From positions 1 through 34,935 of the forward strand of contig PHBF01000002.1 in assembly GCA_002841905.1 (NCBI GenBank): a stretch of DNA of 34,935 bases. The letters are read 5' to 3'. How positions within the stretch are numbered: the stretch's first letter is position 1; each line of letters starts with the position of its first letter. A model generated the notes under the pieces. The model saw only the letters and a program-made list of their open reading frames with translations, was not told where the DNA came from and made no database searches. A program made the translations under genes and the position numbers. This document shows positions 1 through 26,135 of the stretch, piece after piece. The stretch comes from Deltaproteobacteria bacterium HGW-Deltaproteobacteria-17. GTDB taxonomy: Bacteria; Myxococcota_A; Polyangia; HGW-17.

Positions 1-10
1 CACCGCCTCG

Positions 11-8206: not shown

Positions 8207-8377
8207 TCAACAGCCGGCGTGGTCCAGGAGCCTGCGAATGAAACCTGCCACGTCGGCCTGGGTTCCTGCATCGGGCCCTCCGTGGATGAACTCGGCGACT
8301 CTGCGCGGACCCAAGGCATCATGGTCCAGGAAGTCGCGTTTCAACACCCCCATGGCGGTCCTGGGCTTATCGGTCAT
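8207..8377 (-). CDS. possible 56-aa ORF overlapping the stop of the AbiEi-like gene (perhaps a truncated partner gene)
   Basis: MTDKPRTAMGVLKRDFLDHDALGPRRVAEFIHGGPDAGTQADVAGFIRRLLDHAGC. High GC3. It overlaps the upstream gene end by 11 nt and stops 10 nt from the 30-bp repeat. Too short for the ORF track. Confidence 0.25.
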   Translation of the reverse strand: MTDKPRTAMGVLKRDFLDHDALGPRRVAEFIHGGPDAGTQADVAGFIRRLLDHAGC

Positions 8378-10079: not shown

Positions 10080-11810
10080 TTATTTACCATTCCACTTTCC
10101 AATTGTGGCTATAACTCTTTCCATTTTCTCAACAAGATCAAATCTCGAACATTGCTCTTTTTCTGTCATTATTCGAGTTGCTTGAATTGCCAAATCAATT
10201 TTTTCGAAATTTGTAATACCGGGGTTTTTCTCAAGATATGACAAGCCGTCTTTTTTCTTCTTCGGGAATAATGGCTGGTACTGTTCAATCTCCACCAATT
10301 CTTGTTCTGGAGAAAGGTCTTGTTTAAAAACCTCTGCTAGAACTGAACCGGTTAGATAATTTTCGATTTCTTTGCCCTGAGTTATCCAAATGAAACTGCC
10401 AGGAATTTTATCAACTTCATCCTTTATCCGCTGAACCCGGGGTTTTAAGGAATCAGTTTCGTTTGTTCGATCACTATCACATATAACGATGAAGTTTCGG
10501 TTTAGATTGAGGAGGTTGGCCCAATCTGCATTTTGATCATCGGGAGATGCGAATTGGTCTCTTCCAATCAGGGAACCACCGGTGAAGGCGCATTGGTAAT
10601 CTCTCCCCTCGTGAAGCGAACCGTCGCTGAAAAGCTCAATCCATTTGTTCAAATAAATGCGATCTGAAGGCCCTTCAACCCAGATGATGCCGTTGGCTTG
10701 CAATAAATCTGATGGCCTTGTGCCAAGCTCTGCAAGCAAATCTAATTTGTCAAAATGTGTGGAGATTGATCGTGCGACAGCGGATTTTCCATCATGAGTC
10801 ACGCGAATTATTTGCGCAGAATTGGATGTGCCAAAAAAATCTAGAGCCACACTTGAATGGGTGGTGAGAAAAATGATTGCTTTTTCTCGAGTTACGTATT
10901 CTTCGAGGTATTCCAAAAGCCTTCGAAAAAGAGCAGGATGAAGATTGTTTTCCAACTCTTCAAAGGCAAACACATATGAAGATTTTTCTTTCTTTTCCAT
11001 TTCAGGAATTACAAGAAGATTCAAGAGCACCAGGATAATGGTTTTCAGTCCACTCCCGGACTCACTAAGTGAATACAACTCTTTTCCCTGTTCTCCGAGA
11101 ATTATTTCCCATGAACCAGGCGGATTAATAGGGCTTGCTAGAGCATGTTTTCTGGCAGTAATCTCAATAAATCTTCCATCTTTTCCAAAGATGTCATCTA
11201 AAGCGAATAGCAGATCTTGCTGGATCAATTCTCGACGAAAGCCTATAGTGTTAACATACCGATTTATGATGCTCGTTGCGCCAGTGCCATCAGGTAAAAG
11301 TTGGGGGTCATTAGCGTCTATTTCTGGACGAATATCCCTGTCTGCAAGAAGCCACCGGAAATTTGTTCCAGATAGAAAGTGTTTTGAATGGCGGGCAATA
11401 TTTTCAATAATATTTTTAATTTCAATATATTGCTCATGCCCATATCGATTTAGTGGAAGTGTGTCTAAATTAATATTTGCAACAGTGCCGTCTCGACGAA
11501 TGTCCCAAAAAATGCGCTTTCCAACAAAATGGCGGCCATAATTACTCCAGTGCTCAGATGTAAGCGGTCCCCCATAAGTGTTTTCTGGGAAACGATCTTT
11601 GAGGGTTCTCTCGTCAAGAACGCCACTGCAGATACAATCAACATTTGGAACAGTATTCCTTATACATAAAAGTTCAATAAACCTTAAGTAATACGACTTG
11701 CCTGAGTTATTTCTGCCTATTATAACATTAATTGGCTTGATATATTTTAATTCAGAGAGACTATCTTTAAAGCAATGGTAGCCAAGGTATTGAATGGAGT
11801 CTATATACAT
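10080..11810 (-). CDS. ABC/AAA15-type ATPase fused to a TOPRIM (DUF4435/OLD-like) nuclease domain; OLD-family or single-chain PARIS-like defence protein
   Basis: Walker A GRNNSGKS. Signature-like SESGSGLKT. Walker B/D-loop FAFEELENNLHP. H-loop TTHS. C-terminal TOPRIM motifs IIWVEGPSDRIYL and FIVICDSDR. Strongly AT-rich compared with its neighbours. Confidence 0.8.
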   Translation of the reverse strand: MYIDSIQYLGYHCFKDSLSELKYIKPINVIIGRNNSGKSYYLRFIELLCIRNTVPNVDCICSGVLDERTLKDRFPENTYGGPLTSEHWSNYGRHFVGKRIFWDIRRDGTVANINLDTLPLNRYGHEQYIEIKNIIENIARHSKHFLSGTNFRWLLADRDIRPEIDANDPQLLPDGTGATSIINRYVNTIGFRRELIQQDLLFALDDIFGKDGRFIEITARKHALASPINPPGSWEIILGEQGKELYSLSESGSGLKTIILVLLNLLVIPEMEKKEKSSYVFAFEELENNLHPALFRRLLEYLEEYVTREKAIIFLTTHSSVALDFFGTSNSAQIIRVTHDGKSAVARSISTHFDKLDLLAELGTRPSDLLQANGIIWVEGPSDRIYLNKWIELFSDGSLHEGRDYQCAFTGGSLIGRDQFASPDDQNADWANLLNLNRNFIVICDSDRTNETDSLKPRVQRIKDEVDKIPGSFIWITQGKEIENYLTGSVLAEVFKQDLSPEQELVEIEQYQPLFPKKKKDGLSYLEKNPGITNFEKIDLAIQATRIMTEKEQCSRFDLVEKMERVIATIGKWNGK

Positions 11811-11880
11811 AAAATCCTTTCATTGGCACTTGAATTGTGCGTTAATTGCATTTATCTGAGTCCCATATTTTCAGTAGCAA

Positions 11881-12846
11881 TCACCTCACTCCCACCAGCC
11901 GCACCCCGACCGGGAAGTGGTCGCTGAACCCCTTCACATCCACCTTGCCTTTGCCCATCCCGAAGCGACGGGGGCCGGAGCCCTTCTTCTTCTCGATCAT
12001 CGGGCGGCCTTCGATGGTGGCCCCACCATCCACCGTCCAGCCGCTGGAGCCAGCGACTATGCCGCGGCTGACCAGGATCTGGTCGAGCATGTTCCACCGG
12101 CCGTTGTAGAGCAGGGAGCCCTGGCCGGCGCCGCACAGGGGCCACATCAGATTCAGCAGGTAATGGTTCTTGCCGGCCAGCACCTGGGCGGGGTCGCTGG
12201 TGCCCAGGGCGTATTCATTCAAAGAGCGGTTGAAGGGCTCGTCATTGAAGTCACCCATGACCACGATGCCCACATCGTCGCCCTGCTCCTCGTGGATGCG
12301 CTCCACCCAGTAGGCCAGCGTCTCCCCGGCGATGATGCGGAACGGCTCGGATTCATACTGGCCGGCCGAGCGCGACGGCCAGTGGTTGCCGATGAGCACC
12401 AGCTTCTTGTCCCCGACGCTGAAGTTCACCTGGAACAACTCGCGGGTGGCGTAGCGCTTGACCACCCAGTGCTGGAACCACTCTTTCTTGCTGGTCTTGG
12501 CAACCTTGGGGTCGTAGAGGAACGCCACGTCGATGCCCCGGTTGTCGCCGGTGTCCGCGTGGGCGACCTTGTACGTGCGCCCGCCGGCCGAATGAATGGC
12601 CTCACAGAGACGATGCAGGACGTTGACGTTTTCGACCTCGCACACGCCAAGGATATCCGGACCGGCGCCATTGTTCATCGCGCAGATGACCTTCGCCAGC
12701 TGGGCCAGCTTCAGTGCCAAGAGGTCCTCGTCCCATCCAGCCAAATCCTTTCCGATGACTTTCTGCAGTTTCTCAGGGCGTGGGGCGGTCTCTGTGTCGA
12801 ATAGGTTTTCCAGGTTCCAGAATGCCAGGTACAGGGAATCGGGCAT
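11881..12846 (-). CDS. endonuclease/exonuclease/phosphatase (EEP) family protein
   Basis: Start MPDSLYLAFWNLENLFD after GGAGGTGG. Also contains ILGVCEVEN, VVMGDFND and FSDHFPV, the characteristic EEP catalytic blocks. Confidence 0.8.
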   Translation of the reverse strand: MPDSLYLAFWNLENLFDTETAPRPEKLQKVIGKDLAGWDEDLLALKLAQLAKVICAMNNGAGPDILGVCEVENVNVLHRLCEAIHSAGGRTYKVAHADTGDNRGIDVAFLYDPKVAKTSKKEWFQHWVVKRYATRELFQVNFSVGDKKLVLIGNHWPSRSAGQYESEPFRIIAGETLAYWVERIHEEQGDDVGIVVMGDFNDEPFNRSLNEYALGTSDPAQVLAGKNHYLLNLMWPLCGAGQGSLLYNGRWNMLDQILVSRGIVAGSSGWTVDGGATIEGRPMIEKKKGSGPRRFGMGKGKVDVKGFSDHFPVGVRLVGVR

Positions 12847-13038
12847 GGCGCCACCTCCGGAAAAAAGCATAGCCGAGTTCATGATCTAGTCAATACAATT
12901 GTGCGATCCATGCACGGGGGCGCAGATGGAACCTAACAGATGTTCAGTGGAGATCTCCTCCATTTTCATGATGGTGAAATTTTTCAATATTCCTGTAATT
13001 GCAGGTGTTTTTTGCCGATTTTTCTTTGGCTCGCCGGG

Positions 13039-13066
13039 TTGACACGCTCGGCAGAATTGATAAACA
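13039..13066 (+). promoter_or_regulatory. sigma70-like promoter candidate for the 13084 gene
   Basis: TTGACA (13039-13044), 16-nt spacer, TAAACA (13061-13066). Confidence 0.35.
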
Positions 13067-13083
13067 GCGGGCGTCTCGAGTGA

Positions 13084-13776
13084 ATGGAAATAACGCACAT
13101 TTCCATTATAACACCGACTGCGGTCGGAGAAAGCGTCGATGGTAGTAGTATGTCGTTTATGAGCAAGACTTGGAACCTGGAAACCAAAACCGAACACCTC
13201 ACGCATCTCGCCATGTCCGTAAAATTGGAGAGCGAGACGGCCCACCTCTACGCGCCGCTGAGCGACATCTTGACCACGGCCAACGAGGTCCTCACCGAGA
13301 GCAGGCGGCTGCGCCTGGCTCAACTCGAGGCCCTGGCCAGGGTCAACACCCTGGATCGCAAGCTGGACATCCAGGCGTCGAGCCTCTCCCACAGCGCCCG
13401 CCAGGCCGAGCGCCTCAATCCGGCTTTGCGCGTGCTGGGAAATCTGTTCCCTGACGGTGTCAGCACCGTGACCAAGCCCACGGGTCGAGGGGTCGGTACC
13501 CAGGTCCGGCTGCTCAACGGCGTCATCGTTTCCACCGACGGCATGCCCGAGGCGGCCGTCCTCGCCCCCGTCATCGCCGATCTGCGCACGACGCTGGCCG
13601 CCACCGAGACGGCGCTGGCCGAACTCAAGGCCATCGATGATCAGGTCGAAGCCAACGAACGCCTCAGCGACGACACCGCCGAACGCGTCTACAACGCCTA
13701 CTATGTGACCAAGGGCGAACTGATGAAGATCTACATCAACAACAAGCGCTTCATCAACTCGTTCTTCCTGAACTAG
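13084..13776 (+). CDS. hypothetical helical protein (start uncertain: 13084 or 13150)
   Basis: The plus-strand translation is protein-like and helix-rich (...LAELKAIDDQVEANERLSDDTAERVYNAYYVTKGELMKIYINNKRF). The longer antisense ORF 12886-13923 is R/G/D-rich junk. No family recognised. Confidence 0.6.
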   Translation: MEITHISIITPTAVGESVDGSSMSFMSKTWNLETKTEHLTHLAMSVKLESETAHLYAPLSDILTTANEVLTESRRLRLAQLEALARVNTLDRKLDIQASSLSHSARQAERLNPALRVLGNLFPDGVSTVTKPTGRGVGTQVRLLNGVIVSTDGMPEAAVLAPVIADLRTTLAATETALAELKAIDDQVEANERLSDDTAERVYNAYYVTKGELMKIYINNKRFINSFFLN

Positions 13777-13784
13777 TCCTCTCC

Positions 13785-14186
13785 CTTCGATATCTACTTC
13801 GGCTCTGCTCGCACGGGCTCGACGGACTTCGAATATCACTTCGGACCTGCTCGCACGAGTTCGACGAGCTTCGAATATCACTTCGGCACTGCTCGTACGG
13901 GTTCGACGAGCTTCGAATATCACTTCGGCACTGCTCGCACGGATTCGACGAGCTTCGAATAAGACTTCGGCACTGCTCGCACGAGTTCAGCGACTTTTGA
14001 ATATAACTTCAGACCTGCTCGCACGGGTTCAACGACTTTTGAATAGAACTTCGGCTCTGCTCGCACGAGTTCAGCGACTTTCGAATATAACTTAGGCCCA
14101 GCTCGCACGGGTTCGACGAGCTTCGACCAAAACTTTCAACTTGCTCGCACCGATTCAACGACTTTCAAATAAAACTTCGCCTAACG
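13785..14186. repeat. 42-bp tandem repeat array, ~9.6 units, with degeneracy increasing toward the 3' end
   Basis: Units start at 13785, 13827, 13869, 13911, 13953, 13995, 14037, 14079, 14121 and 14163. Consensus CTTCGAATATCACTTCGGCACTGCTCGCACGGGTTCGACGAG. Each unit carries a TTCGAA palindrome and a GCTCG..CGAGC dyad. There are no unique spacers. Confidence 0.95.
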
Positions 14187-14260
14187 TTTGAGCGGTCCAG
14201 GAGGTGTCACTTCACAAACGGCGGGATCTCACTGTAGAGGTCACGTTCCATGCACCCTTA

Positions 14261-14328
14261 CCGCCCGCACCGGGCGGTTGATCGACGGTAGCCCCTGGTT
14301 GCCCAGCCGAAGGCGGAGCTACCAGGGG
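14261..14328 (+). terminator. GC-rich hairpin pair (terminator / REP-like), related to the element at 4152-4195
   Basis: CCGCCCG-cac-CGGGCGG (14261-14277) and CCCCTGGT..ACCAGGGG (14292-14328). 37 of 44 nt are identical to 4152-4195. Confidence 0.45.
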
Positions 14329-14339
14329 TCAACAAAACG

Positions 14340-14800
14340 CCAAACGCCGAGTTCAACTGTCGCCTGTCCTCCCGGCCGGCATTTTGAAAAACTTTTTTCT
14401 ATTCGTTACACCCTGAAATATCCCAATAAATTCAACGCACTCCGCCTTGCCATATTCCAATACCACTGAAAGCGCAATATTTGCCCTGTTGACACTCACG
14501 AGTGTTTCCCCAATGCTGATTGCATTCCGTTTTTCCTCGTTCGGAGAGGTGCTCGTCCATGGCGACGTTGTTGACCTTCGAAAGCAGCAGATTCCGGCAA
14601 CCGGTTGTAGTGGGTTGCTGGCGAGGGAGCCTTTGCGGGGACGTACAGACAGGGGATGGCGCGATTTTTCAATCTGGATTGTCGATGACGTGGCACGCTC
14701 TTCGATTATCCGGTAAATCATTTCCGAATATTTTTATGCGGATGACGAAGACGAGTATTTTTTCTCACGGATCGGCAGAAACAAAAGTTTGCTTGAGAAA
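14340..14800 (+). repeat. conserved ~450-bp non-coding leader element, copy A (upstream of cassette 1)
   Basis: Aligns along its length with 16824-17266 and 19694-20146. It ends TTTCTCACGGATCGGCAGAAACAA about 27 nt before ATG 14821. Confidence 0.9.
14489..14517 (+). promoter_or_regulatory. promoter-like box inside leader copy A
   Basis: TTGACA, 17-nt spacer, AATGCT. The -35 hexamer is invariant in all three copies. Confidence 0.35.
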
Positions 14801-14820
14801 CAGAATAAGGAGAAGAGACT

Positions 14821-15036
14821 ATGGCATACTATGTTGGACTAACAGATGATCTAGAAACCAGAAAACAGCAACACGGCAACCCTTCAGACTGGTCCACGAC
14901 GGGGCCATTTTCGTCAGAGAAAGCCGCGCGCGACTGGGAGAAGGGGGAACTCGCAAAGGGGCATAAAGGTGGCCCTGGCGGCGCTGGTTGGCGCTACGGC
15001 TACTGGTACACAATTACCAGCACAACAATTGAATAG
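14821..15036 (+). CDS. small conserved-looking protein (71 aa); the N-terminus resembles the second half of a GIY-YIG motif
   Basis: SD AAGGAG upstream. MAYYVGLTDDLETRKQQHGNP... resembles YIG.T.DL..R...H. It is the first gene after leader copy A. Confidence 0.55.
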   Translation: MAYYVGLTDDLETRKQQHGNPSDWSTTGPFSSEKAARDWEKGELAKGHKGGPGGAGWRYGYWYTITSTTIE

Positions 15037-15129
15037 TCAGCAAACAATCAAATGCAGGATATTTTCGCGTAGCCGCGAAAAATCATGATTTGAGAGGTTA
15101 GATTTCTTTACTCACAAAGGACTCCCGCG

Positions 15130-15798
15130 ATGGCCCGCACCAGTGATCGAGATGTATTTGTCAAACGCCTTGCAGAACTTTCCGGTGAAGACGGCAATTT
15201 CGTTAGTAACGAAGCGCTCAGAAAGAAGTTGAAGTGGGAGAAACAAAAGTACCGCACTGTTCACAGTGTCCTTCGTCAGGAAGAGTTAATTGTTGTAAAG
15301 AGAGGGAGGGGTGGGTTACTCGCTCTCGCGGCTAGCCAGCAATCCGACAAGCTCAAGTTGTTTGTGTCCTACAGTCACATCGACAAGGATCTCAAAGAGC
15401 GACTCATACGGCACCTGCAACCGCTCGAAAGAGAAAATCTCATTGAGGTTTGGGCGGATCATGAGATTCTTCCCGGAGACGATTGGGACAAAGAAATTTC
15501 AAAGAAGTTAGGTGAGGCAGACATTGTATTAACGCTCGTCAGTATTGACTTCATCAACTCGAAGTATTGCTATGACATAGAACTGATCAAGGCATTGGAG
15601 CGTGAAGCCGACGGTGAAGCGAAGGTAATCCCGGTTATCTTGCGGAGCTGCCTTTGGACAAAGTCCCCTCTTGGGCGACTCAAGGCGCTCCCTACTGACG
15701 GAAAGGCCGTTACCACTTGGCTAGATACGGACGATGCTTTAACCGTTGTCGCAAGTGGTATACGTGACTCTGCCATCGCCCTGCTTGAGAATGTCTAA
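15130..15798 (+). CDS. TIR-domain protein with an N-terminal ~70-aa (possibly winged-helix) domain
   Basis: TIR_2-type blocks LFVSYSHIDKD, WADHEILPGDDWDKEI, IVLTLVSIDFINSKYCYDIELIKAL (conserved Glu) and VIPVIL. Confidence 0.85.
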   Translation: MARTSDRDVFVKRLAELSGEDGNFVSNEALRKKLKWEKQKYRTVHSVLRQEELIVVKRGRGGLLALAASQQSDKLKLFVSYSHIDKDLKERLIRHLQPLERENLIEVWADHEILPGDDWDKEISKKLGEADIVLTLVSIDFINSKYCYDIELIKALEREADGEAKVIPVILRSCLWTKSPLGRLKALPTDGKAVTTWLDTDDALTVVASGIRDSAIALLENV

Positions 15799-15917
15799 GA
15801 AATCTATCCTGCGTTTCGAGGGGACCGCCGAGAAGCTGCGCTTCTCGGTTCCCTCCGCCCTACGGGCTTCGGCAGACCCTTCAACTGAACGGTGTGTACG
15901 ATGAGGAGAAGGTGACG

Positions 15918-16682
15918 ATGAAATTCATCCATACAGATCTTGGGCAACGAAAGGCTGGTGAGATAGTCGAGATCACCCTAACCAGCGGCGCCAATGTCCG
16001 TTTGATGGACAGTTCCAACTTCTCCAGTTACAAGAACGGGCGGAACCACCAGTACATCGGAGGATTGGCGCGACGGTCTCCCGTGAGGCTTCAGATACCG
16101 AGGAGTGGCCACTGGCACGTCGCAGTCGATATGCAGGGACTGCAGGGGAGCACGCGCGCATCCGTTCGTGTCTTACCCGGAGCTCTTCCCGACATTCGAG
16201 AGGTACCGCTATCTTCGGTGCCAGGTCTTGTCCGCGAAAACGTCCCGCCAGCAGTTGAAACCGGGGACCAAGCCTACGATGTGTTCATCTCTCACGCATC
16301 GGAAGACAAGGACGATATTGTGAGGTCGCTTGCTAATGCACTGAGCACCCAGAATTTGAAGGTATGGTACGACGAATTCACGTTGCGGATAGGAGACAGC
16401 CTCAGGCAGAAGATTGACAAAGGCCTGGCAACCAGCAGAGTCGGTCTCGTCGTCCTGTCTCCGGCGTTCATATCGAAGGGCTGGACGAACTACGAATTGG
16501 ATGGAATCGTGACGCGCTCAGTCTCGGGGGAGCAAATCCTTCTCCCGATATGGCACAACATTACGAAACAGCAAGTTATGGATTTTAGTCCATCTCTCGC
16601 CGACAAGGTTGCTAGAAGCACCGCAACTCACACCGTTGAAGAGATTGCTGAGGAGATCGCAGAGTTGATCCATGGGTGTTGA
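15918..16682 (+). CDS. DUF1883-TIR fusion protein
   Basis: Start MKFIHTDLGQRKAGEIVEITLTSGANVRLMDSSNFSSYKNG... (DUF1883-like) after GGAGAAGG. C-terminal TIR blocks YDVFISHASEDKD, VWYDEFTLRIGDSL and WTNYELDG (conserved Glu). Confidence 0.85.
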   Translation: MKFIHTDLGQRKAGEIVEITLTSGANVRLMDSSNFSSYKNGRNHQYIGGLARRSPVRLQIPRSGHWHVAVDMQGLQGSTRASVRVLPGALPDIREVPLSSVPGLVRENVPPAVETGDQAYDVFISHASEDKDDIVRSLANALSTQNLKVWYDEFTLRIGDSLRQKIDKGLATSRVGLVVLSPAFISKGWTNYELDGIVTRSVSGEQILLPIWHNITKQQVMDFSPSLADKVARSTATHTVEEIAEEIAELIHGC

Positions 16683-16823
16683 AAAAGAAGGCCGACAACC
16701 AGGCCTTGTCTACCTCATCAAGCGTGAGACGGAAATACTGCTCCATCCCCGATGAAGCAGGTGTACGCATCATCGGCCAGGGCCGTCGGCCCGGCCAAGT
16801 CGCCCAACTGGACTCCATACTCT

Positions 16824-17266
16824 GAGTCCAACTGCCGCTTGTACTTCCGGCCGGCATTTTGAAAAACTTTTTTCTATTCGTTACACCCGGAAATCCCCCA
16901 ATAATTTCAACGCACTCCGCTGTGCCATATTCCAATACCACTGAAAGCGCATTATTTGCTCTATTGACACCCTCTGCATTTCGCCCAATGCTGATGGCGT
17001 TCCGTTTTTCCTCGTTCGGTGAGGTGCTCGTCCATGGCGACGTTGGTGACCCTCGAAAGCAGCAGATTCCGGCAACCGGTTGTAGTTGGTTGGTGGCGGG
17101 GGGTCTTCTGCGGATCCGTACAAACGGGGCATGGCGAGACTTCTCAATCAGACTCTTCGAAGGCGTGGTACGCTATTCGATTTCGCTGTAAATCCTTTTC
17201 AAATCATTTTATGCGGACAACGGTGACTAAATATTCTTTCTCACGGATCCGCAGAAACAATGGTTA
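16824..17266 (+). repeat. conserved ~450-bp non-coding leader element, copy B (upstream of cassette 2)
   Basis: See copy A. It ends TTTCTCACGGATCCGCAGAAACAATGGTT 19 nt before ATG 17285. Confidence 0.9.
16964..16992 (+). promoter_or_regulatory. promoter-like box inside leader copy B
   Basis: TTGACA, 17-nt spacer, AATGCT. Confidence 0.35.
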
Positions 17267-17284
17267 GAACTTACAGGGGGCTCA

Positions 17285-18196
17285 ATGGCAGCCGACGACA
17301 AACCAACAAACTACTTCGTCCGATCCCTTATTGCACTCCTCTGCGTTCTCATCGCAGGTATGGTCCTGTTCCGGTTCCTACGAGTGGAGCCAATTGGAGA
17401 GATCACGAGCGGTCTGTTGGCTCTCCTCGGCCTGCTTGTCGTACTCGTGCTTTCGGAGTCATTCGACAACTTTTCGGTGGGAAAACTCTTCGCTATCTCC
17501 CGCGAGGTGCGTAAGAAGGAAGCTGAGATTGAGAAACTAGAAAAGCAAAACGCATCGCTACTCTCGCAATTGATCACGATCAGCAACTCGCAGTCCCAGA
17601 AGCAGAGCAGCACTACGGTTCAAGGCGACTACTACGCCACCGCCCCAGTAGTGCAGAAAGCGACTGAGGCAGAAGTGCAAGAGAAGCAGAACAACGAGAG
17701 CCGCGCCCTCGCTGCTACCGCAGCGGAAGCGCCCGCACCAGCTCGGATTGATTGGGCCCGGGCCGAAAGCATGGCGCTAGATAAGTTGCTCAAGCTTCGC
17801 AACATTCATCTGTCAAATGTCATTACGGAGGCAAAGTTATCGTTCCTCCAAGGTATTGATCCCATCAGCAATATCCAGCCTATCTTTGATGGCTACATCA
17901 AAGAGTCAGATGGCGAGACGTTTATCGACATGCGTCCAGAGCGGCTCCTGAGCCCTATGTATCGCGACCGTCTTTACGTCATGCTTTCCAAGATACACCA
18001 CTATCGGGCCACCAAGCAGATCAACGCGCACCTTGACGCTGTCATCCTGAAGATTCCCGGTGAGGAAGGCAGAGGCATTTGGGGCAACCCAGAGAGAGTT
18101 TTTCAGTTCTTCGAGCCTGCAATTGCCTCTGGCTTACTCAAAGTTCATGAGATAGAGCTCACCGAGGTCGAAGCTAACGAGTGTCGTCGCACGTGA
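17285..18196 (+). CDS. membrane protein: two N-terminal TM helices, a coiled-coil/low-complexity linker and an unknown C-terminal domain
   Basis: LIALLCVLIAGMVLFRFL and LLALLGLLVVLVL are the TM segments. KKEAEIEKLEKQNASLLSQL is the coiled coil. The C-terminal ~150 aa are globular with no motif I can name. Confidence 0.7.
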   Translation: MAADDKPTNYFVRSLIALLCVLIAGMVLFRFLRVEPIGEITSGLLALLGLLVVLVLSESFDNFSVGKLFAISREVRKKEAEIEKLEKQNASLLSQLITISNSQSQKQSSTTVQGDYYATAPVVQKATEAEVQEKQNNESRALAATAAEAPAPARIDWARAESMALDKLLKLRNIHLSNVITEAKLSFLQGIDPISNIQPIFDGYIKESDGETFIDMRPERLLSPMYRDRLYVMLSKIHHYRATKQINAHLDAVILKIPGEEGRGIWGNPERVFQFFEPAIASGLLKVHEIELTEVEANECRRT

Positions 18197-18307
18197 GTTC
18201 TAACTATTCGTTCAACCGGACGTGCGGGCCGCAGCGCGGTATCATCCAACGCCGCCGGCCGCACGCCGGTTAACTCAAGCGTTGGACATTGGTGAGGGAG
18301 GAATCAG

Positions 18308-18855
18308 TTGGATATCGCAAAGTTTTTCTTTGACTGGGTTCCCCCGCTTGGGATACTAGCAGGGGGGTTCTTCGCTCTATTCAAATGGTGGCATGATGAG
18401 CGCCTCCGATGTGCTCGGGAAATACCGTCACTAGATCAAGGAATCCTCAGAGTTACCGCGTTTTTGCTCTGGAGAGCTGGGTGCAATTGGATGCAACTTG
18501 GCGAAACCCAGGTAAGATCCCCTTCGACGTTGACACTGGTTCGACTCGAATTGACGTCTATCCTATACCGCCTGACCTACCGTTTGGCCCTCTTCAAGTA
18601 CGAAAGGAGAATTCATCTGATCTTGGGCAACCAACCTTTACGCTGTATCCGCTGGCCGGATTCAAGATCTTTCGGTTCGAGCCGGAGTCTGAGGGCATTC
18701 TACAAGGCCATTTTGTGTTGCCGCGAGAGCGCATCGTCCTCTTTCGCTTCAAGATCTTCCGTGCCAATGATGAAGGTCGCAAGCTCTCGCGCACCCGGTT
18801 TCTTGTATTCGACCCTCGCAATCTCGCTACTAGCATCTCAGACGAAGTCGCATGA
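18308..18855 (+). pseudogene. frameshifted gene (or sequencing error or programmed shift): an N-terminal TM segment in one frame and a beta-rich domain in another
   Basis: TTG 18308 follows a strong SD GAGGGAGGAA and encodes LDIAKFFFDWVPPLGILAGGFFALFKWW. From about 18400 the protein-like frame is that of ORF 18409-18855 (..FKIFRFEPESEGILQGHFVLPRERIVLFRFKIFRANDEG..), which has no SD of its own. Confidence 0.45.
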
Positions 18856-18960
18856 TGGTTTTCCGACGTACGATGCCCAACCCATTGCCGGTCCCCTCCG
18901 GCGTTCTGGTTCCGGCGACCTAAAAACTCAAACGGTTGGGCGAATGCCAAAGGAATAACT

Positions 18961-19464
18961 ATGAAGCCAAATCCGAAACTCGATGTTCTCAGATCACAAC
19001 TTGCGGAGCAACTGAATTCTTTTCAGAGGAAGCGGGGGCAGAATAAGAAGAAGGCCTTTCTTGTGTACCTTGGGGCAACGGCAATCAGTGCCGTGGTCAC
19101 AGTACTTCTCGGTCTTCAGGGCATACCAGATGACAAGGTTGTGTACATTCGAAATATCGCATTGATACTGAGTGCCACGGTGACACTTCTGACTGGTTTT
19201 GATACATTTTTCAACCATCGTGCACTTTGGGTTCGGTACACACAAACTGCCACCCTGCTTCTGGGTCTTCAGGCGAAACTGGATTACCTCTCGGCGGATG
19301 AGGGGCGAGAGATACCAGAGAGTGAAGTTGATCAACTCTTTGAGGAGATGCAGCGAGTACTTACAGAAACAAATAGGTGGTGGCAAAACCAGCGGGCTGA
19401 GGAGCCGGATGGACCGAAGCCGCCCAACCCGCCCATGCATCCGACCGGCACTGCTAGCGGCTGA
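18961..19464 (+). CDS. SLATT-domain (DUF4231-like) two-TM protein
   Basis: SD AAGGAA upstream. Two TM helices (AFLVYLGATAISAVVTVLLGL and IALILSATVTLLTGF) are followed by FFNHRALWVRYTQTATLLLGLQAKLDYL, the characteristic SLATT layout. Confidence 0.7.
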   Translation: MKPNPKLDVLRSQLAEQLNSFQRKRGQNKKKAFLVYLGATAISAVVTVLLGLQGIPDDKVVYIRNIALILSATVTLLTGFDTFFNHRALWVRYTQTATLLLGLQAKLDYLSADEGREIPESEVDQLFEEMQRVLTETNRWWQNQRAEEPDGPKPPNPPMHPTGTASG

Positions 19465-19693
19465 TGGGCAAGACGTTTTGTATCCAAGAGGCTGAGCGTT
19501 AGATGAGGATCACACCCGATGTATTCGTTAGAGACGGAGGCCCGGCCACTATTGAAAAGGAGTCTTTTGTCCAGGCCTTGGAGAATCGAAATGGAGCGAA
19601 TGTCTGGTTCCACACACAATTGGCGAAACACCTAGCTAGGTCTTTCAACCAGCCCGTTTCATGAGCGGGCAAGGCCAATTAATTAGCCTATTC

Positions 19694-20146
19694 CAAACGC
19701 CGAGTTCAACTGTCGCCTGTCCTCCCGGCCAGCATTTTGAAAAACTTTTTTCTATTCATTACACCCGGAAATCCCCCAATAATTTCAACGCACTCCGCTG
19801 TGCCAGATTCCAATACCACTGAAAGCGCATTATTTGCTCCATTGACACCCTCTGCATTTCGCCCAATTCTGATGGCGTTCCGTTTTTCCTCGTTCGGTGA
19901 GGTGCTCGTCCATGGCGACGTTGATGACCTTCGAAAGCATCAGACTCCGGCAACCGGATATTGTGGGTTGCCGGCGAGGTGACTTCTGCGGATGTGGACA
20001 CCCGGGGGATGGCGGTATTTCTCAATCTGGATTGTCGAAGACATGTAATACTCTTCGAATTTCCTGTAAATCATTTACAGATAATTTAATACGGACGACC
20101 GTGACGAAGTATCCTTTCTCACGGATCAGCAGAAACAATGGTTGGG
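19694..20146 (+). repeat. conserved ~450-bp non-coding leader element, copy C (upstream of cassette 3)
   Basis: See copy A. It ends TTTCTCACGGATCAGCAGAAACAATGGTT about 28 nt before ATG 20174. Confidence 0.9.
19842..19870 (+). promoter_or_regulatory. promoter-like box inside leader copy C
   Basis: TTGACA, 17-nt spacer, AATTCT. Confidence 0.35.
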
Positions 20147-20173
20147 CCACCACGAACCAAAAAGGAGATGAAC

Positions 20174-20464
20174 ATGAAGATCCGAAACATCAACGGAACT
20201 GCTGACACTACGTGCAAGTGCGGCACTTGGCTGAAGCACTGGGAGAAATTCAGTGGTCTAACCAAACCGACCTACTGCCCTGTAGACAACTGTACTAAGA
20301 CGGATCTTGTCGGGGCACACGTTCAGAAAGGTGGTGGGAGTACCGATCAGAAATGGTACATCTATCCGCTTTGCAATGCCCACAACCAGCACACGGGAGA
20401 ACTCGATGTGCCCGACTTCTATAGACTGGTTTCCGCGAATAAGAAGGAAACTTGCGAGAAGTAG
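20174..20464 (+). CDS. small Cys/His-rich zinc-binding protein (HNH/His-Me-finger-like pattern)
   Basis: SD AAGGAG upstream. MKIRNINGTADTTCKCGTWLKHW...CPVDNC...VGAHVQ...IYPLCNAHNQH. Confidence 0.65.
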   Translation: MKIRNINGTADTTCKCGTWLKHWEKFSGLTKPTYCPVDNCTKTDLVGAHVQKGGGSTDQKWYIYPLCNAHNQHTGELDVPDFYRLVSANKKETCEK

Positions 20465-20596
20465 CTGAGCAGAACCAATCGGTCCAACTGATGCTGCTCC
20501 CCGCCCTGCCCTTAGGTTGCTCTGGGGCACAGCACAGTTGAATGTGTCGTTTGTTGAACAAGAGCACGGCCGTGATGCAACCATGGGAGAGTAGCC

Positions 20597-21004
20597 GTGG
20601 AGAACAAGCGAGCCCACCTGGAGATGATCCAGGCCATCGTCAACCGGATGTCGGTCAACTCGTTCCTGCTGAAGGGATGGTCCGTCGTCCTTATCTCAGC
20701 GCTCTTCGCACTGGCCGCCAGTGATTCCCAAGCGCTCTTTGTCTATCTTGCTTATTTTCCTGCAATCGCCTTCTGGGTACTGGATGGGTACTTCCTCTGG
20801 CAGGAGCGGCTGTTCCGCGGGCTATACGACCGCGTTCGGGCAATGGCGGAGTCAGAGGTGGATTTCGCCATGGACACCTCTGGGGTTCGCGGTGACGACG
20901 GTGGCTGGTTCGCCGTCATCTTTTCCAAGACTCTCGTGATCTTCCACGGGACGGTCTTCGGCTCGATTGTTATCGTCATGTTCGTCATCGTTCTCACAAA
21001 CTGA
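20597..21004 (+). CDS. small multi-pass membrane protein (3-4 TM), unknown family
   Basis: GTG start after GGGAGAG. TM segments WSVVLISALFALAA, LFVYLAYFPAIAFWVLDGYF and TVFGSIVIVMFVIVL. Confidence 0.65.
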   Translation: MENKRAHLEMIQAIVNRMSVNSFLLKGWSVVLISALFALAASDSQALFVYLAYFPAIAFWVLDGYFLWQERLFRGLYDRVRAMAESEVDFAMDTSGVRGDDGGWFAVIFSKTLVIFHGTVFGSIVIVMFVIVLTN

Positions 21005-21017
21005 TAGGTGGTTCACA

Positions 21018-21464
21018 ATGGCTCGACGCGTTTTCTTCAGTTTTCACTATCAACGCGACATCTGGCGCGTTAATCAGATCCGGAACATTCCCAACGTAAC
21101 AGGTTGCGCCGCCGCAGGCTTCCAGGACGGGTCGCTCTGGGAAGAGGCCAAGAAGAAAGGCGATGCAGCGATCAAAGCCCTCATCGACGAGGGCTTGAAG
21201 AACACTTCAGTCACGGTCGTATGCGTCGGTAGCAAGACGGCTGGACGGAAGTACATCAACTACGAGATCGACCAGTCGATCGCGCGGGGGAACGGAATCG
21301 TCGCGGTGCAGATCCATCACTTGAAGGACAAGGACGGCAACACCGATCCGGCAGGTGCAATCCCCGCAAAGATCGAGGCAAACGGCTACAAGGCGTACAA
21401 GTACGTGGACCACGAGAAGCTCGGCAATTGGATTGAAGCCGCCGCGAAGGCCGCCGGCAAGTGA
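21018..21464 (+). CDS. TIR-like protein, DUF1863 / Thoeris ThsB type (copy 1)
   Basis: MARRVFFSFHYQRDIWRVNQIRN... followed by VTVVCVGSKTAGRKYINYEI. SD AGGTGG upstream. Confidence 0.8.
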   Translation: MARRVFFSFHYQRDIWRVNQIRNIPNVTGCAAAGFQDGSLWEEAKKKGDAAIKALIDEGLKNTSVTVVCVGSKTAGRKYINYEIDQSIARGNGIVAVQIHHLKDKDGNTDPAGAIPAKIEANGYKAYKYVDHEKLGNWIEAAAKAAGK

Positions 21465-21531
21465 AGCCTGCTAACAACAGCATACAGCGGACGGTACTTC
21501 GCGCCGCCGCTGAACTGGAGCGCTAAGTAGA

Positions 21532-22212
21532 ATGGCAGACTCAACGACTGAGAACTTACTTGCCCGATATGAGGGCAATAGATTCGTTCGCGGATTAGTG
21601 CAGCTCATCCCGTTTGGTATCGGCGGTGCGATTGATGTCATCGTTCTAAAGACCCTGAACAATATCAGAGAAGAGCGTTCTCGCGTTTTCTTCGATGAAC
21701 TGGCCAACACATCAACGCCGCTTGATCCAACAATGTTGGAGTCCGAGGATTTCCTCCATTGTTACTTCTCAACCGCTCGATATGCACTGAATTCGAGGCG
21801 GCGAGAGAAAATTCAAATGTTCGCACGGCTGTTGAAGGCATCATTGGGCGAAATGGGACCGCGAGAAGTTGATGAGTACGAGGAGCTATTGAAAATACTT
21901 GACGATTTGTCGTTTCGAGAACTTGAAGCTCTCACCATCATGGATTCATTTTCAAACAGCCCTAGAATGTCTGGTCAGAACGATCTCCAATGGACAGATA
22001 CATTTTGGAAAGAATTTGAAGATCGAATTGTTTCCGATCTCGGGGTTCCAAGAGATGAGGTGTCTGATTTTATGAATCGAATCTCGCGAACGGCGTGCTA
22101 CGAGATGTTCACTGGCGGATATCACGACTATACCGGAGGAAAGGGCAAACTAACTCCGACTTATAGGCGATTAAAGCGATTTATTAGCAATGAGGTAGGA
22201 AATGCTATCTAG
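21532..22212 (+). CDS. hypothetical protein (226 aa) with a short N-terminal hydrophobic segment
   Basis: Protein-like composition (LVQLIPFGIGGAIDVIVL, then a helical region). No motif recognised. Weak SD. Confidence 0.6.
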   Translation: MADSTTENLLARYEGNRFVRGLVQLIPFGIGGAIDVIVLKTLNNIREERSRVFFDELANTSTPLDPTMLESEDFLHCYFSTARYALNSRRREKIQMFARLLKASLGEMGPREVDEYEELLKILDDLSFRELEALTIMDSFSNSPRMSGQNDLQWTDTFWKEFEDRIVSDLGVPRDEVSDFMNRISRTACYEMFTGGYHDYTGGKGKLTPTYRRLKRFISNEVGNAI

Positions 22213-22521
22213 CTTTACGCTCCCGAGTGACGCTACGCCTGCTAACTGGCTTCGCGTCCCAGAGTGGGCACGTTTGAAATTATTAGGAGGCGATCATGCC
22301 AAGAAAGTCATGGAAAACGTTGGACAATGCCTTTGTCGAGTTTTTCAGAAGTGCAGAGGTTAGAGACCATGACTGCATGTTCCATTGTAACCGATGAGGT
22401 TTGGACTTTGTACGCACGCAGGAGCAGCCATGAACGCAGAATGCAAGAGCCAATTTATAGAAATAATTGCGCGTGTGTGTGAAGGCACCGAGTAGCACAG
22501 ACTTCCCTTTGAGGAAGAATA

Positions 22522-23112
22522 ATGGCGAAACGAGTATTCTTCAGTTTCCACTACCAGGATGTGATCGATTTCCGAGCAAACGTCGTCCGGAATCACTGGG
22601 TGACGAAAGAGAGTCGTGACATTGCAGGCTTCTTTGACGCATCGCTATGGGAGAGCGCAAAGAAAGACAGCCCTCTTTCGGTCAAGCGCCTGATCAATTC
22701 GGGGCTGGAAAGGACCTCCACAACTTGCGTCCTCATCGGAACGAATACCTGGGCGCGTCCATGGGTTCGCTATGAGATCGTAGCTAGTTTCCGGCGTGAG
22801 AACCGGATGTTGGGTGTCCACATCAATTCGATCGCTGGCAAGGACCAGCGAACCAAGGCACTTGGCGTAAACCCATTCGAGTATCTCGGTGTGCGGTTTT
22901 TTAACTCTGGACTGACGGCAACGCTCTATGAGGTTGTTGGGTCTAAGTGGATAGAATACACTGAATATGGGCCGAGCGCGACGTATCAGACCGGGGGCGT
23001 TGGTTGCGAACACTGTGGCAAGTTCTATAAATTTTCTGACCTTTACAACATATTCGACTGGGGAAGGGGCGATGGATATAATAATTTCGCGTCTTGGGTC
23101 GAGAACGCCTAG
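22522..23112 (+). CDS. TIR-like protein, DUF1863 / ThsB type (copy 2) with a C-terminal extension
   Basis: MAKRVFFSFHYQDVIDFRANVVRN... followed by TTCVLIGTNTWARPWVRYEI. SD GAGGAAG upstream. Confidence 0.8.
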   Translation: MAKRVFFSFHYQDVIDFRANVVRNHWVTKESRDIAGFFDASLWESAKKDSPLSVKRLINSGLERTSTTCVLIGTNTWARPWVRYEIVASFRRENRMLGVHINSIAGKDQRTKALGVNPFEYLGVRFFNSGLTATLYEVVGSKWIEYTEYGPSATYQTGGVGCEHCGKFYKFSDLYNIFDWGRGDGYNNFASWVENA

Positions 23113-23153
23113 GATAATGTTTGGCAACAACCGTAGAAATTCATGGGTGTAAT

Positions 23154-23540
23154 ATGAACAAACAAGTTTTTTTGAGCTACGTCTTTGAGGATATTGCGTA
23201 TCGAGATCAAATAGTCGACTGGTACCGAAAGGGACTCTTAGGAAAGTGGGTCCCCGTATTTGAGAAAGAGGATGTACGACAGGGTGGTGATGCTGCTATC
23301 CGAGGACACTTACGTCCGATCTTGAGAGACGCTGATGCCGTTCTTGTTCTTGTCGGGCAGGACACTCACAATCGCCGTTGGGTTAACGAGGAGGTGCATT
23401 TTCTTGCAACGTCTGGCAAGGCTATACTGTGGACTCGAATTCCGAATTCAACTGGCGGAGCGCCCCCGGAGTTGCGCTCCAAAGCCGTTGTCCAGTTTTC
23501 TCCAGAGGAGATTCGTCAGGCTCTCGACTCAGCACGATGA
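23154..23540 (+). CDS. divergent TIR-like protein (copy 3)
   Basis: MNKQVFLSYVFEDIAYRDQI... followed by AVLVLVGQDTHNRRWVNEEV. The block order matches the two ThsB-like genes. Confidence 0.65.
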   Translation: MNKQVFLSYVFEDIAYRDQIVDWYRKGLLGKWVPVFEKEDVRQGGDAAIRGHLRPILRDADAVLVLVGQDTHNRRWVNEEVHFLATSGKAILWTRIPNSTGGAPPELRSKAVVQFSPEEIRQALDSAR

Positions 23541-23572
23541 ATTTGGACTTATAATTTGCGTGAGGAGGAATT

Positions 23573-24178
23573 ATGGCACAACACACTGCTAAATCACTGT
23601 TCGATCTCAACATCGTTGGGGCAAAAGAGAGCATCGCCCTCTACGAGGGTCTAGACAAGATTAGGGTTGGAGCAGACATTACATGGCTTTTGCGTGCGTC
23701 GATTGTATTCTCGGTTTCGGCGATGGATGCTTACTTCCACGACAAAGTCCGATATCGTATGGCGCAGTTCAATGTGGCAAACCTCCCAGATGCACTCCGC
23801 AATTTACAAATCAAGATGGGCGATTTGGCTGTATGGGAATCTCACAAGCGCAAGGGCAATGCCATTCGAAATATAGTGGTGGAAAGAATGGCTTTTAAAT
23901 CTTTACAGGGAATGAATCAAATTGCGGATGCCATGCGTCTCTGTGGAGAAGAAGGGTTCTGGGGGAAGGTGTATCCAGACAAGACAATTAGGGAACAAGT
24001 GCTCATTGAACTCAAGGAGTACGGCGACCGGCGCAATGATATCGTCCATGAGGGCGACAGATTATCGGCGCGCAACAGTGGAAAAGTGTTGCGTGACATA
24101 GATTTAACCTTCGCACAGGATTGTTGTCGCTTTGTAGAGAATTTGGTTACTGCTGTTGAGCAGGCGTTTGCATGGTAG
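23573..24178 (+). CDS. HEPN-domain protein (RiboL-PSP/MAE_28990-like), predicted RNase
   Basis: SD GAGGAGG upstream. Rx4H motif RNDIVH (24032-24049) in ...EYGDRRNDIVHEGD... All-helical composition. Confidence 0.65.
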   Translation: MAQHTAKSLFDLNIVGAKESIALYEGLDKIRVGADITWLLRASIVFSVSAMDAYFHDKVRYRMAQFNVANLPDALRNLQIKMGDLAVWESHKRKGNAIRNIVVERMAFKSLQGMNQIADAMRLCGEEGFWGKVYPDKTIREQVLIELKEYGDRRNDIVHEGDRLSARNSGKVLRDIDLTFAQDCCRFVENLVTAVEQAFAW

Positions 24179-24392
24179 GGCTTCACAAATTAAAAGCATT
24201 TCAACCAGTCGACCATGGGAAATACTGGATAATAAGGATTGTGTACAGCAAGCAATTAGGATGGCGTTCGAGAAATGCGACCTAATTTTTAACGTTATAG
24301 TGTTTCCCCCAAAAAATTCTCATTGACAATTCCGCCCTGCCATGGTGACCATTTACGCTGAGTCCGGCAGTGTCACCGGTCGAAAGGATGCC

Positions 24393-24941
24393 ATGCACGA
24401 AGGTTCGGATGCGGCAACCCAGGTCGAGGCGTTCATCGAGCGGTGGCAGGCGGCGGGGGGCACCGAGCGGTCCAACTTCCAGATGTTCTTCACGGAGTTG
24501 TGCTTGGTGCTGGGGCTGCCCACACCCGATCCGGCCTCCGAGATAACCCGGTACAATGTCTTTGGATTCGAAAGTGCCATGGAATCCGAAGGCCTGATTA
24601 GCTACCTTCGTCCGGAATACCAGAACCCTGCTTCGGCCACCGCGCCCACCCGCCATACCGAAAAGCTGGATCTGCCCCCCGAAGAAATCGAAACCCCTGA
24701 ATCCGCACCACCGACCCGCGCCGCTGCGTTACCATGGCCCAAGGATCCCGCTTCTCAGGCCAAAGCCCTTGCGGATCTTCTCGTCTCCTCCCCCACACCA
24801 CTCAACATCGACTCCATCGCCTCCTCCTTCACCAGCCGCGGCAAATGGAAAGCCCGTTTGCAACCGTTGCTCGAATGCTGGTGTTGTTGGGCAGGGCAAG
24901 GGAGAGTGGCGGGAAGTATTATGGAGTGTAGTAATGAGTGA
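24393..24941 (+). pseudogene. remnant of a large class-I SAM-dependent DNA methyltransferase (type IIG/IIL or BREX-PglX-like): internal deletion plus a frameshift
   Basis: The N-terminal block QVEAFIERWQAAGGTERSNFQMFFTELCLVLGLPTPDP is joined directly to the C-terminal blocks LISYLRPEYQNP ... LPWPKDPASQAKALADLL ... SRGKWKARLQPLLE. The expected end MLVLLGRARESGGKYYGV lies in another frame, consistent with a 1-nt loss in GAA(A)TG. Confidence 0.7.
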
Positions 24942-25839: not shown

Positions 25840-26135
25840 CGTAAAAATTATCTATAGAACTAAGCAAAATGCTTCATTTGAAACAATATATACCAAGCCC
25901 ATGTTTCACAAATCTGGATTCATCTACTTCGAAAACACTAGGCGAAATGGCGACAAGGGCGTTGATTGCGACGAGTTGGCGCGCAAGCTCAAGGAGCTGG
26001 GCCTAGGCGTGAAAACGGAGTTGATCGAACAGGTGAGCGTGGACCCGTCGTGGTTCCAGGGGCTGTGAGAGTGACACCATGAGACAGAAGAGAACTGATG
26101 CAGCAACTTTTCCCCAATTCGGAGGGAACTGAAGC

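Follow-up and report, generated by a model that had tools for sequence, protein, structure and literature searches.

The closest described parallel to the element analysed here is the attI1 region of class 1 integrons. The element is a sequence of about 450 nt that occurs three times (copies A, B and C) in a 34,935-nt stretch of DNA from Deltaproteobacteria bacterium HGW-Deltaproteobacteria-17 (positions 1 to 34,935 of contig PHBF01000002.1, assembly GCA_002841905.1; hereafter the window), each time at the head of a different defence operon. The short open reading frames (ORFs) ORF-11 and ORF-18 of attI1 boost the translation of the inserted cassette by translational coupling; their own translation initiation region matters for this enhancement, and their amino-acid sequence barely does (PMC8876359). 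Our element resembles attI1, which contains the promoter Pc together with ORF-11, ORF-17 and ORF-18, in that promoter and short ORF both come from a shared upstream region, the ORF having a canonical Shine-Dalgarno sequence (SD) and an ATG of its own (PMC8876359). The ORF likewise ends at or near the start of the following gene, which in our case it would boost by coupling, and the sequence of its peptide appears unimportant. An integron leader often has the TAG within GTTAG as its stop codon; the leader ORF of copy B, and that of the related copy F described below, stop in the same GTTAG, at the point where homology between the copies ends. The element differs from attI1 in that its island carries no IntI integrase, no attI or attC sites and no array of promoterless cassettes, in that each operon has its own full head of ~450 nt with a leader ORF of 68-97 codons as against 11-18, and in having no sequence similarity to it. 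No integrase or transposase was detected when the 20 main called ORFs from 10080 to 28292 were scanned against Pfam, and the 3' ends of the cassettes have no repeat in common that could serve as attC, each operon possessing a promoter-like box of its own. An earlier sequence-only reading of the window had raised an integron-like scaffold as one option; this stands as logic only, since integrase, attC and terminal repeats are all missing.

Three further classes invite comparison. Putative mobile promoters (Matus-Garcia, Nijveen and van Passel 2012; PMC3575422) are defined as upstream regions of non-homologous genes in one genome that match at 80% identity or more across 50 nt or more. The 124 nt upstream of the element's promoter are 90-95% identical among A-C and the downstream genes are unrelated, which places it within this definition; the definition uses the region from -150 to -50 relative to the annotated start, which here falls inside the leader ORF and is still 76-80% alike. 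As with these promoters, similar upstream regions precede non-homologous genes in the same and in related genomes, and no known mobile element is involved. In contrast to that class, which is delimited by similarity from -150 to -50 alone and has no mechanism attached, the element is longer, includes a 5' untranslated region (5'UTR), an SD and a leader ORF, and is limited to the defence operons of one hot spot. Leader-peptide attenuation (erm, cat and aminoglycoside-cassette leaders) and coupling or occlusion by upstream ORFs (uORFs) share with the element an SD-preceded uORF in a 5' leader, and the translation status of that uORF sets the expression of the downstream gene (PMC8876359; PMC13285730). 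Those leaders, however, have 8-40 codons and a defined site of stalling, with alternative hairpins masking the SD of the following gene, whereas the element has no conserved alternative pairing or stall motif, and the SDs downstream of it are not conserved. Promoter-bearing miniature inverted-repeat transposable elements (MITEs) such as Correia and ERIC are also repeated non-coding elements able to supply promoters to their neighbours. A MITE was ruled out here, as the copies share no terminal inverted repeats and have the same orientation in 9/9 cases; target duplications are lacking as well, and scans of plasmids, phages and GTDB representatives did not find the element. The element is neither an integron nor a MITE, and it is not a member of any Rfam family.

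The reading that we prefer, and to which we give slightly better than an even chance, is that the element serves as a portable expression head for defence operons acquired horizontally, each copy combining a promoter, a 5'UTR that carries an SD, and a leader ORF that is translated but whose peptide does not matter. The head would consist of ~125 nt of upstream regulatory DNA, the promoter, a ~35-nt 5'UTR with a strong SD and, across the 3' 60% of the element, a leader ORF with 68-97 codons, or 14 in one short variant. Selection would act on the passage of ribosomes through the leader and not on the peptide made. Either the leader ORF or a second ORF that begins at an ATG in the conserved 3' block would end on or near the start codon of any first gene, translational coupling would load ribosomes onto the cargo, and the long leader would be shielded from polarity; an additional regulatory gate is possible. 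The module would spread by duplication and recombination inside a strain-variable defence hot spot, with gene conversion homogenizing the 5' half among the copies of one genome. On this reading the feature is a reused promoter-leader module and not a new RNA, which makes it more ordinary than the sequence-only reading held; its unusual property, on the best reading of the alignments, would be a long leader ORF kept open for translation alone.

The known regulators of defence genes are proteins, for example those of the BrxR/CapW type, and how bacteria safely express newly acquired and often toxic defence genes is, to our knowledge, largely unexplored. If the expression-head reading is true, one lineage equips any cargo with a reusable DNA head: a promoter, a site for ribosome loading and a leader ORF whose peptide is of no account. 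As a single 450-nt sequence that occurs naturally with nine different cargoes, the element would provide a handle on co-regulation and modular exchange in defence islands. The leader ORF, overlooked by most gene callers and by the sequence-only reading, also carries a caution for annotation.

A repeat family ahead of unrelated cargo

A repeat search of the window returned one direct repeat in three copies, at 14339-14638, 16814-17113 and 19692-19991 (87-91% identity to the reference copy), and a separate 36-nt conserved block, also in three copies, at 14754-14789, 17230-17265 and 20108-20143. MAFFT and blastn alignments place the copies in register at 81-84% pairwise identity across ~450 nt. 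The three direct copies of the sequence-only reading are borne out, as are the shared invariant runs that it listed, all of which are present in the alignments, and its division into a conserved 5' part (90-95% among A-C) and a diverged 3' part (76-80%). It had the element end 19-28 nt before the start codons; the conserved 3' block (Table 1) ends 36 (A), 24 (B) and 35 (C) nt before them. In six of the seven full copies the block is followed by ATGGTT or ATGTT, copy A reading AAGTT, and the homology of the seven copies stops sharply at the GTT.

The family comprises nine copies, six of which (D-I) come from close relatives, uncultivated bacteria, whose contigs are cited here under our own L numbers. 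Copy D (L010, L026 and L027; L010 is Ga0180007_10000740) heads a 245-aa gene and a DEAD helicase gene and lies, as copy A does, directly downstream of a GC-rich hairpin region and a homologue of a gene that we call X. Copy E (L028) heads a 171-aa gene; copy F (L031 and L032), strongly diverged, a lone TIR gene; copy G (L019-L021), short and partial, a DUF4357 gene; copy H (L034) a 375-aa gene and a HerA/DUF87 ATPase gene; and copy I (L035 and L036) small genes. Copy D was found by an exact scan of metagenomes with the 3' block, which gave one true copy (L010) and 11 chance matches, copies E, F and G by tracing homologues of gene X to their contigs and applying nhmmer, and copies H and I by a profile of the leader peptide, on two contigs where gene callers had called the ORF. 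An exact-pattern scan of viral contigs with two conserved blocks gave no match, nor did blastn of copy B against plasmid and phage collections, and an exact 20-mer scan of GTDB species representatives gave only a chance match inside a transporter gene (L004). An nhmmer match inside the called DUF4357 gene of L019 arose because the gene call is over-extended across the short version of the element; the possibility that the element is a pseudogene of a DUF4357 protein was rejected, tblastn finding no protein similarity.

All nine copies have the orientation of the genes downstream of them, and the nine cargoes are unrelated to each other. The sequence-only reading had taken the three operons of the window as parts of one defence system. 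This does not hold in the sister genomes, where the element heads a DEAD helicase, a HerA-type ATPase, a DUF4357 protein, a lone TIR protein and small genes; such unrelated stand-alone cargo points to a generic head and not to a component of one system. The degree of conservation must be read against the relatedness of the carriers. The core SnoaL gene has 95% nucleotide identity between the window and L026 (gene X only 60%). This exceeds the element, and the idea that the latter surpasses its neighbours in conservation was given up. Among carriers so closely related, the element is not remarkable for how far it is conserved in absolute terms, and it is the pattern within it that is informative.

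Putative promoter, start signal and open leader frame

Within that pattern, TTGACA and AATGCT are invariant in eight copies save for AATTCT in copy C, the partial copy G reading TTGACT and CATGGT. The spacer between the hexamers is exactly 17 nt throughout, and its sequence falls into five unrelated types (A/I, B-E, F, H and G). A promoter shows itself in a comparison by just this, hexamers that do not vary and a spacer constant in length but free in sequence. We therefore accept the box proposed by the sequence-only reading, together with its proposal of a shared promoter and a ~300-nt leader for each operon, for which hexamers, spacer length and orientation hold in nine copies; a sigma-70-type promoter is the best-supported reading of TTGACA-17 nt-AATGCT.

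The -10 hexamer is followed by a conserved 5'UTR of ~35 nt that ends in GG(A/T)GAGG-N9-ATG, invariant in eight copies; copy G has GGAGCGG-N9-ATG and a 14-codon ORF. The frame set by this SD and ATG is open in every copy, for 68-97 codons in A-F, H and I. Over the stretch of the leader ORF it has no stop codon, against 1-7 stops in each of the other five frames per copy. A first-order Markov model gives a probability of 0.03-0.09 per sequence for such an open frame. When the 104 distinct substitutions among A-E and H were placed at random, no stop arose in 0.5% of trials (P = 0.005), and when they were kept in their own columns with random bases, in 1.6% (P = 0.016). Copy F, near saturation outside the conserved blocks, still has 77 open codons and the same TAG stop as B, and in copy I everything after about codon 33 is replaced by unrelated sequence, in which 38 further codons remain open. 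The minus-strand and other plus-strand ORFs were considered as genes and rejected, their frames being broken inconsistently among the copies. The sequence-only reading had called the element non-coding and its ORFs devoid of SDs, and the in-frame TGA that it saw in copy A, interrupting the frame of the 16859-17191 type, is present. Both statements are nevertheless wrong for the leader frame, which is open in all copies and begins at an invariant SD-N9-ATG, because only two other plus-strand frames had been examined.

The frame also stands in a regular relation to the cargo. As in attI1 leaders of the ORF-11 type, SD and start lie in the common region, and at least one leader frame ends within -32 to +17 nt of the start of the first gene in 9/9 copies. 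The gap from stop to start is -29 (A), +17 (B), -32 (C), +7 (G), +9 (H) and -13 nt (I) for the main leader ORF, whereas D, E and F have a second short ORF, starting from the ATG conserved in the 3' block (CAATGGTT), for which the gap is -8, +1 and -8 nt. Leader ORFs A and C overlap their first genes (ATG at 14821 and 20174) by these 29 and 32 nt; the TAG of leader ORF B, at the junction of element and cargo, precedes the first gene (17285) by its 17 nt. The 3'-block ATG of copy C (20138) shares its frame with the first gene, and in copy F no SD is visible ahead of the first gene. The arrangement is as expected for translational coupling. Moreover, as a leader frame always runs to the cargo, the ~300-nt leader would never be left untranslated, and continuous translation of a leader would guard against Rho-dependent polarity.

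Several observations weigh against the expression-head reading. The -10 hexamer matches TATAAT at only 3/6 positions, and an automated promoter scan of the window did not list the site, the scan demanding at least 4/6 matches per hexamer. The conservation of the ~125 nt upstream of the -35 hexamer and the invariance of TCACGGATC in the 3' block are not explained by the model. The open-frame statistics were computed after the frame had been chosen, although SD and ATG lend the choice independent support. Most first cargo genes (A, C, E and I) carry a good SD of their own, so that coupling may not be needed, and the starts of the first genes are gene-caller predictions. All extra copies but one come from X-linked contigs or from a called uORF, and the copies are related, with effectively only ~3-4 independent lineages. 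Transcription start, leader translation, coupling and any regulation by infection are inferred from sequence.

Table 1. Positions of the element copies, their signals and associated features. Positions refer to the window unless a contig is named.
Feature	Position	Strand	Description and evidence
Element copy A	14340-14789	+	Heads 71-aa gene, TIR gene and DUF1883-TIR gene; repeat search, alignments, nhmmer (540 bits), Pfam
Element copy B	16815-17265	+	Heads 303-aa transmembrane protein, 216-aa protein and SLATT/DUF4231 protein; repeats, alignments, nhmmer, Pfam
Element copy C	19693-20143	+	Heads 96-aa protein, PDC-M50A, 3 ThsB-type TIR proteins and RiboL-PSP HEPN; repeats, alignments, nhmmer, cargo matches
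Conserved 3' block TTTCTCACGGATCNGCAGAAACAA	14761-14784 (A); 17237-17260 (B); 20115-20138 (C)	+	Repeat search, alignments
Promoter-like box A	14489-14517	+	TTGACA 14489-14494, 17-nt spacer, AATGCT 14512-14517; putative transcription start near 14524
Promoter-like box B	16964-16992	+	TTGACA-17-AATGCT; putative transcription start near 16999
Promoter-like box C	19842-19870	+	TTGACA-17-AATTCT; putative transcription start near 19877
SD and leader ORF A	14543-14849	+	GGAGAGG 14543-14549; ORF 14559-14849, 96 codons
SD and leader ORF B	17018-17267	+	GGTGAGG 17018-17024; ORF 17034-17267, 77 codons
SD and leader ORF C	19896-20205	+	GGTGAGG 19896-19902; ORF 19912-20205, 97 codons
Gene Y loci	L028 4278-5003; L034 141-527; L035 2-523	-	
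Apparent C-terminal remnant of gene Y, fused to 5' end of copy B	16742-16846	-	Weak tblastn match with Y of L028, E 0.006, 45% over 40 aa
Gene X	13159-13776	+	205 aa, all-helical; conserved left neighbour of variable island
Tandem array	13785-14179	+	~9 units of 42 nt; present after X in all X loci
GC-rich hairpin region	14256-14330	+	Between array and copy A; 17-nt arms, 82% complementary

Peptide, exchange and RNA structure as alternatives

An open frame behind a strong SD could also be that of a functional small protein, with a ~30-residue N-terminal module (MxTLx[TS]FES..R.RxP..VG..G.F.G.V) and a hypervariable tail; such a protein might serve as a regulator, pair with the effectors as a labile antitoxin or a decoy, or be a precursor peptide made of leader and core. 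Maintenance of the frame speaks for it, as do gene calls of the ORF on two contigs and N-terminal residues common even to the diverged copy F, across in-frame insertions and deletions and a synonymous change of TTG to CTC. The ratio of nonsynonymous to synonymous differences per site (pN/pS) gives a weak signal at best. In eight copies, its value over the 30 N-terminal codons is slightly lower in frame (0.71) than in the shifted frames (0.86 and 1.15). For the whole ORF among A-E the in-frame value of 0.84 is indistinguishable from 0.79 and 1.00 off frame, and the N-terminal codons are conserved at synonymous sites too, as would result from constraint on RNA or on the initiation region. The tails vary among the copies: 1-nt deletions move them to another frame in A (the second frame) and H, the tail of copy I is replaced, and copy G is reduced to 14 codons. 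An AlphaFold model of the peptide, built on a shallow five-sequence alignment, has a pLDDT (predicted local distance difference test score) of 41 and no secondary structure. A search of 1.84 billion representative proteins with the peptide profile revealed no family and no relatives besides the copies themselves, barring one weak match to P0017, a 765-aa protein (E 2.6e-4, in four stretches). It is also hard to picture a single partner for TIR, SLATT, HEPN, helicase, HerA and DUF4357 cargoes, and peptide-maturation enzymes are not found nearby. We consider a functional small protein unlikely. The leader peptide appears barely constrained, and it is the openness of the frame, not the peptide, that seems to be conserved. 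A precursor of the kind found among ribosomally synthesized and post-translationally modified peptides, with a conserved leader and a variable core, was ruled out, there being no maturation genes, fold or family.

The second alternative concerns the history of the copies. The 124 nt upstream of the -35 hexamer are, as noted, 90-95% alike among A-C but only 73-83% alike between these and D, E, H and I. Within the body of the ORF, identity is 77% for B-C, against 85% for B-D and 84% for C-D, and over the 3' half B and C resemble D and E, which come from other genomes, more closely (84-85%) than they resemble one another (77%). A 5' half that is alike within one genome and a 3' half nearer to foreign copies indicate gene conversion, and the identity matrices thus confirm the mosaic relationships and the exchange between copies that the sequence-only reading had suggested. 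Part of the striking 5' conservation inside the window is then due to gene conversion and not to constraint.

The 5' boundary of the element points to a further event. Copies E, H and I are oriented divergently to a gene that we call Y, encoding an Ogg-HhH-like DNA glycosylase by a weak match to PF22175 (E 7e-6, 26.2 bits, just below the cut-off of 27); of the three, copy I has Y intact, while E and H have it broken or internally deleted. Copy B appears to have a C-terminal remnant of Y fused to its 5' end (Table 1), a reading that includes sequence read by eye in the minus-strand ORF at 16718-16831. The 5' extension CCAAACGCCGAGTTCAACTG, which had been counted as part of the element, lies outside its core and is, by the same match to copy B, an apparent minus-strand remnant of Y. 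The extensions of A (14340-14376) and C (19693-19729) and the aligned stretch of D appear to be remnants of the same Y junction by their alignment to B, the weak tblastn match in B being the one piece of direct evidence. If this is right, a single deletion derivative, re-used before different cargo, is the ancestor of all four copies A-D. Gene Y may have been the first partner of the promoter region, or its regulator.

These observations could mean that the element is primarily a homology arm for swapping and stacking defence cassettes at the hot spot, an integrase-free analogue of the integron in which the promoter is incidental. In favour of this, strains whose SnoaL genes are 95% identical differ in the cargo behind the first copy after gene X, array and hairpin (A versus D), A-D appear to share one Y-remnant deletion junction and hence one re-used copy, the 5' half has the gene-conversion pattern, and homology ends sharply at GTT in seven copies. 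The junctions read GTTAG, GTTGG or GTTTG (17263-17267 and 20141-20147 in the window; L026, L028, L031 and L034), and C, D and E have GTTGGGC, which fits the integron core GTTRRRY and may be coincidence. The island nevertheless carries no recombinase, no attC-like sites at the 3' ends of its cassettes, no terminal inverted repeats and no target duplications, and ordinary homology of the flanks, with X and the array to the left and RhuM to the right, would suffice for exchange. An arm also leaves unaccounted for the invariant hexamers round a free spacer, the invariant SD and ATG, and the avoidance of stops. Such a role is compatible with an expression head and does not exclude it; as the primary function of the element we regard it as quite unlikely. 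A stronger version, in which the element is both a homology arm and a transferable cis-acting switch for toxic abortive-infection effectors, so that the island forms an integrase-free, self-regulating "defence integron", strikes us as equally improbable. Ribosome traffic on the leader, together with a factor bound to the upstream DNA or the 5'UTR, would keep TIR, SLATT, HEPN, helicase and HerA operons poised and release them when a phage perturbs host transcription or translation, while the same 450 nt would let new cargo plug in.

The sequence-only reading had favoured a structured leader RNA that co-regulates the operons. Such an RNA would act in cis, like a riboswitch or by binding a protein, in response to a signal, and it now looks very improbable. 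The leader is long (~300 nt), its 5'UTR and 3' block are strongly conserved as nucleotides, the 12-bp long-range complement reported in copy B is indeed there (12-14 bp, perfect over 14 bp), and a CCUC...GAGG pairing could sequester the SD (96% paired, but invariant). Rfam, on the other hand, gave no match to any family, neither at the gathering score over the whole window nor at E<=5 over 13700-20400. RNAalifold on six copies returned a covariation term of +1.37 (positive, hence unfavourable). The hairpin, the long-range helix and the SD-masking stem together contain one compensatory cell over seven copies, with a covariation score reached by 120/500 shuffles. Neither the hairpin, in which 6/9 pairs vary only by breaking, nor the long-range helix is maintained in the other copies. 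The minimum free energy z-scores of the copies (-0.39, -0.82 and +0.15) are near zero, and copies I and G, of which one has swapped its whole 3' half and the other lacks it, both retain promoter, SD and ORF. These structure tests rest on 7-8 sequences, so that their power is limited, but none of them speaks for a structure.

Least probable of all is that the element is functionless duplicated DNA, left over when an ancestral Y-promoter intergenic region underwent segmental duplication and conserved only through youth or homogenization: gene conversion clearly homogenizes the 5' half in the genome of the window, and the carriers are all close relatives (core gene 95%) in which absolute conservation is unimpressive, but the divergence is patterned (hexamers, SD and ATG invariant as against a freely changing spacer and ORF body), stop codons are avoided, orientation and stop-to-start geometry are kept in 9/9 copies, and copy F keeps the same blocks while near saturation elsewhere.

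The defence island and neighbouring loci

The repeats lie in an island of ~50% GC, from ~10 to 28.7 kb, within a genome of 60-70% GC; a SnoaL_2 gene forms its left boundary and efflux genes its right. By Pfam and PADLOC, its left part holds a GajA-like AAA_15 ATPase gene (-), an Exo_endo_phos_3 gene (-), gene X (+) and the array of 42-nt tandem units; to the right of the array follow the A, B and C operons and then RhuM. The three ThsB_TIR proteins of the C operon do not amount to a Thoeris pairing, no SIR2, Macro or SLOG protein having been found in the island. A scan for tRNA and tmRNA genes as an att site found none. A patch at 25001-26000 has 34% GC, far under the island average, and may be a separate recent insertion; the stretch 24342-25839 contains a weak MmeI_N fragment (E 1.4e-4, below the cut-off) followed by a 356-aa ORF that falls in this patch.

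The product of gene X is modelled with confidence as an all-helical bundle (pLDDT 84), for which Foldseek gave generic matches only (best E 0.04); it has no Pfam, PADLOC or NCBIfam match, and no ToxN-like family was detected. Gene X was considered as the regulator of the element and set aside, given only generic Foldseek matches and no family match. Most X loci are without the element, and we draw no link between the two. The X loci compared lie at 13159-14179 in the window, L017 10001-11050, L018, L019 4886-5830, L022, L025, L026 10001-11000, L028 788-1750 and L031 769-1700. A divergent Exo_endo_phos_3 gene is often found upstream of X, and variable defence genes always follow. The arrays of these loci consist of ~42-nt units or of alternating 84-nt units, and the unit differs between two X subfamilies (49% amino-acid identity), as if protein and repeats co-evolve; protein-binding iterons and a repeat RNA are candidates for their nature. 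In L017 and L022, the left flank of the X locus (1-8500 in both) carries a type III-like CRISPR-Cas system (two RAMP proteins and a Cas10 palm) and a sigma-54-activator AAA+ gene, with no CRISPR array seen in the sequence examined.

The GC-rich region between the array and copy A forms a double hairpin, ACCGCCCG-CAC-CGGGCGGT followed by CCCCTGGT...ACCAGGGG. It is not T-tailed and so is no obvious intrinsic terminator, and it is kept upstream of copy D in L010 and L026 (about 11055-11130 in L026).

Outside the island, the window has tandem paralogous genes at 5095-6699 and 6668-8146 (534 and 492 aa; repeat families D3, D4, D6, D8 and D9 at 75-93% nucleotide identity), the first of which was scanned and has no Pfam match. 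The pair is syntenic with two 512-aa genes of L026 and thus belongs to the conserved flank. A long ORF at 2227-4107, also devoid of a Pfam match, encodes Cys-rich repeats (CxxxC...RCLG) with a period of 147-165 nt (family D5).

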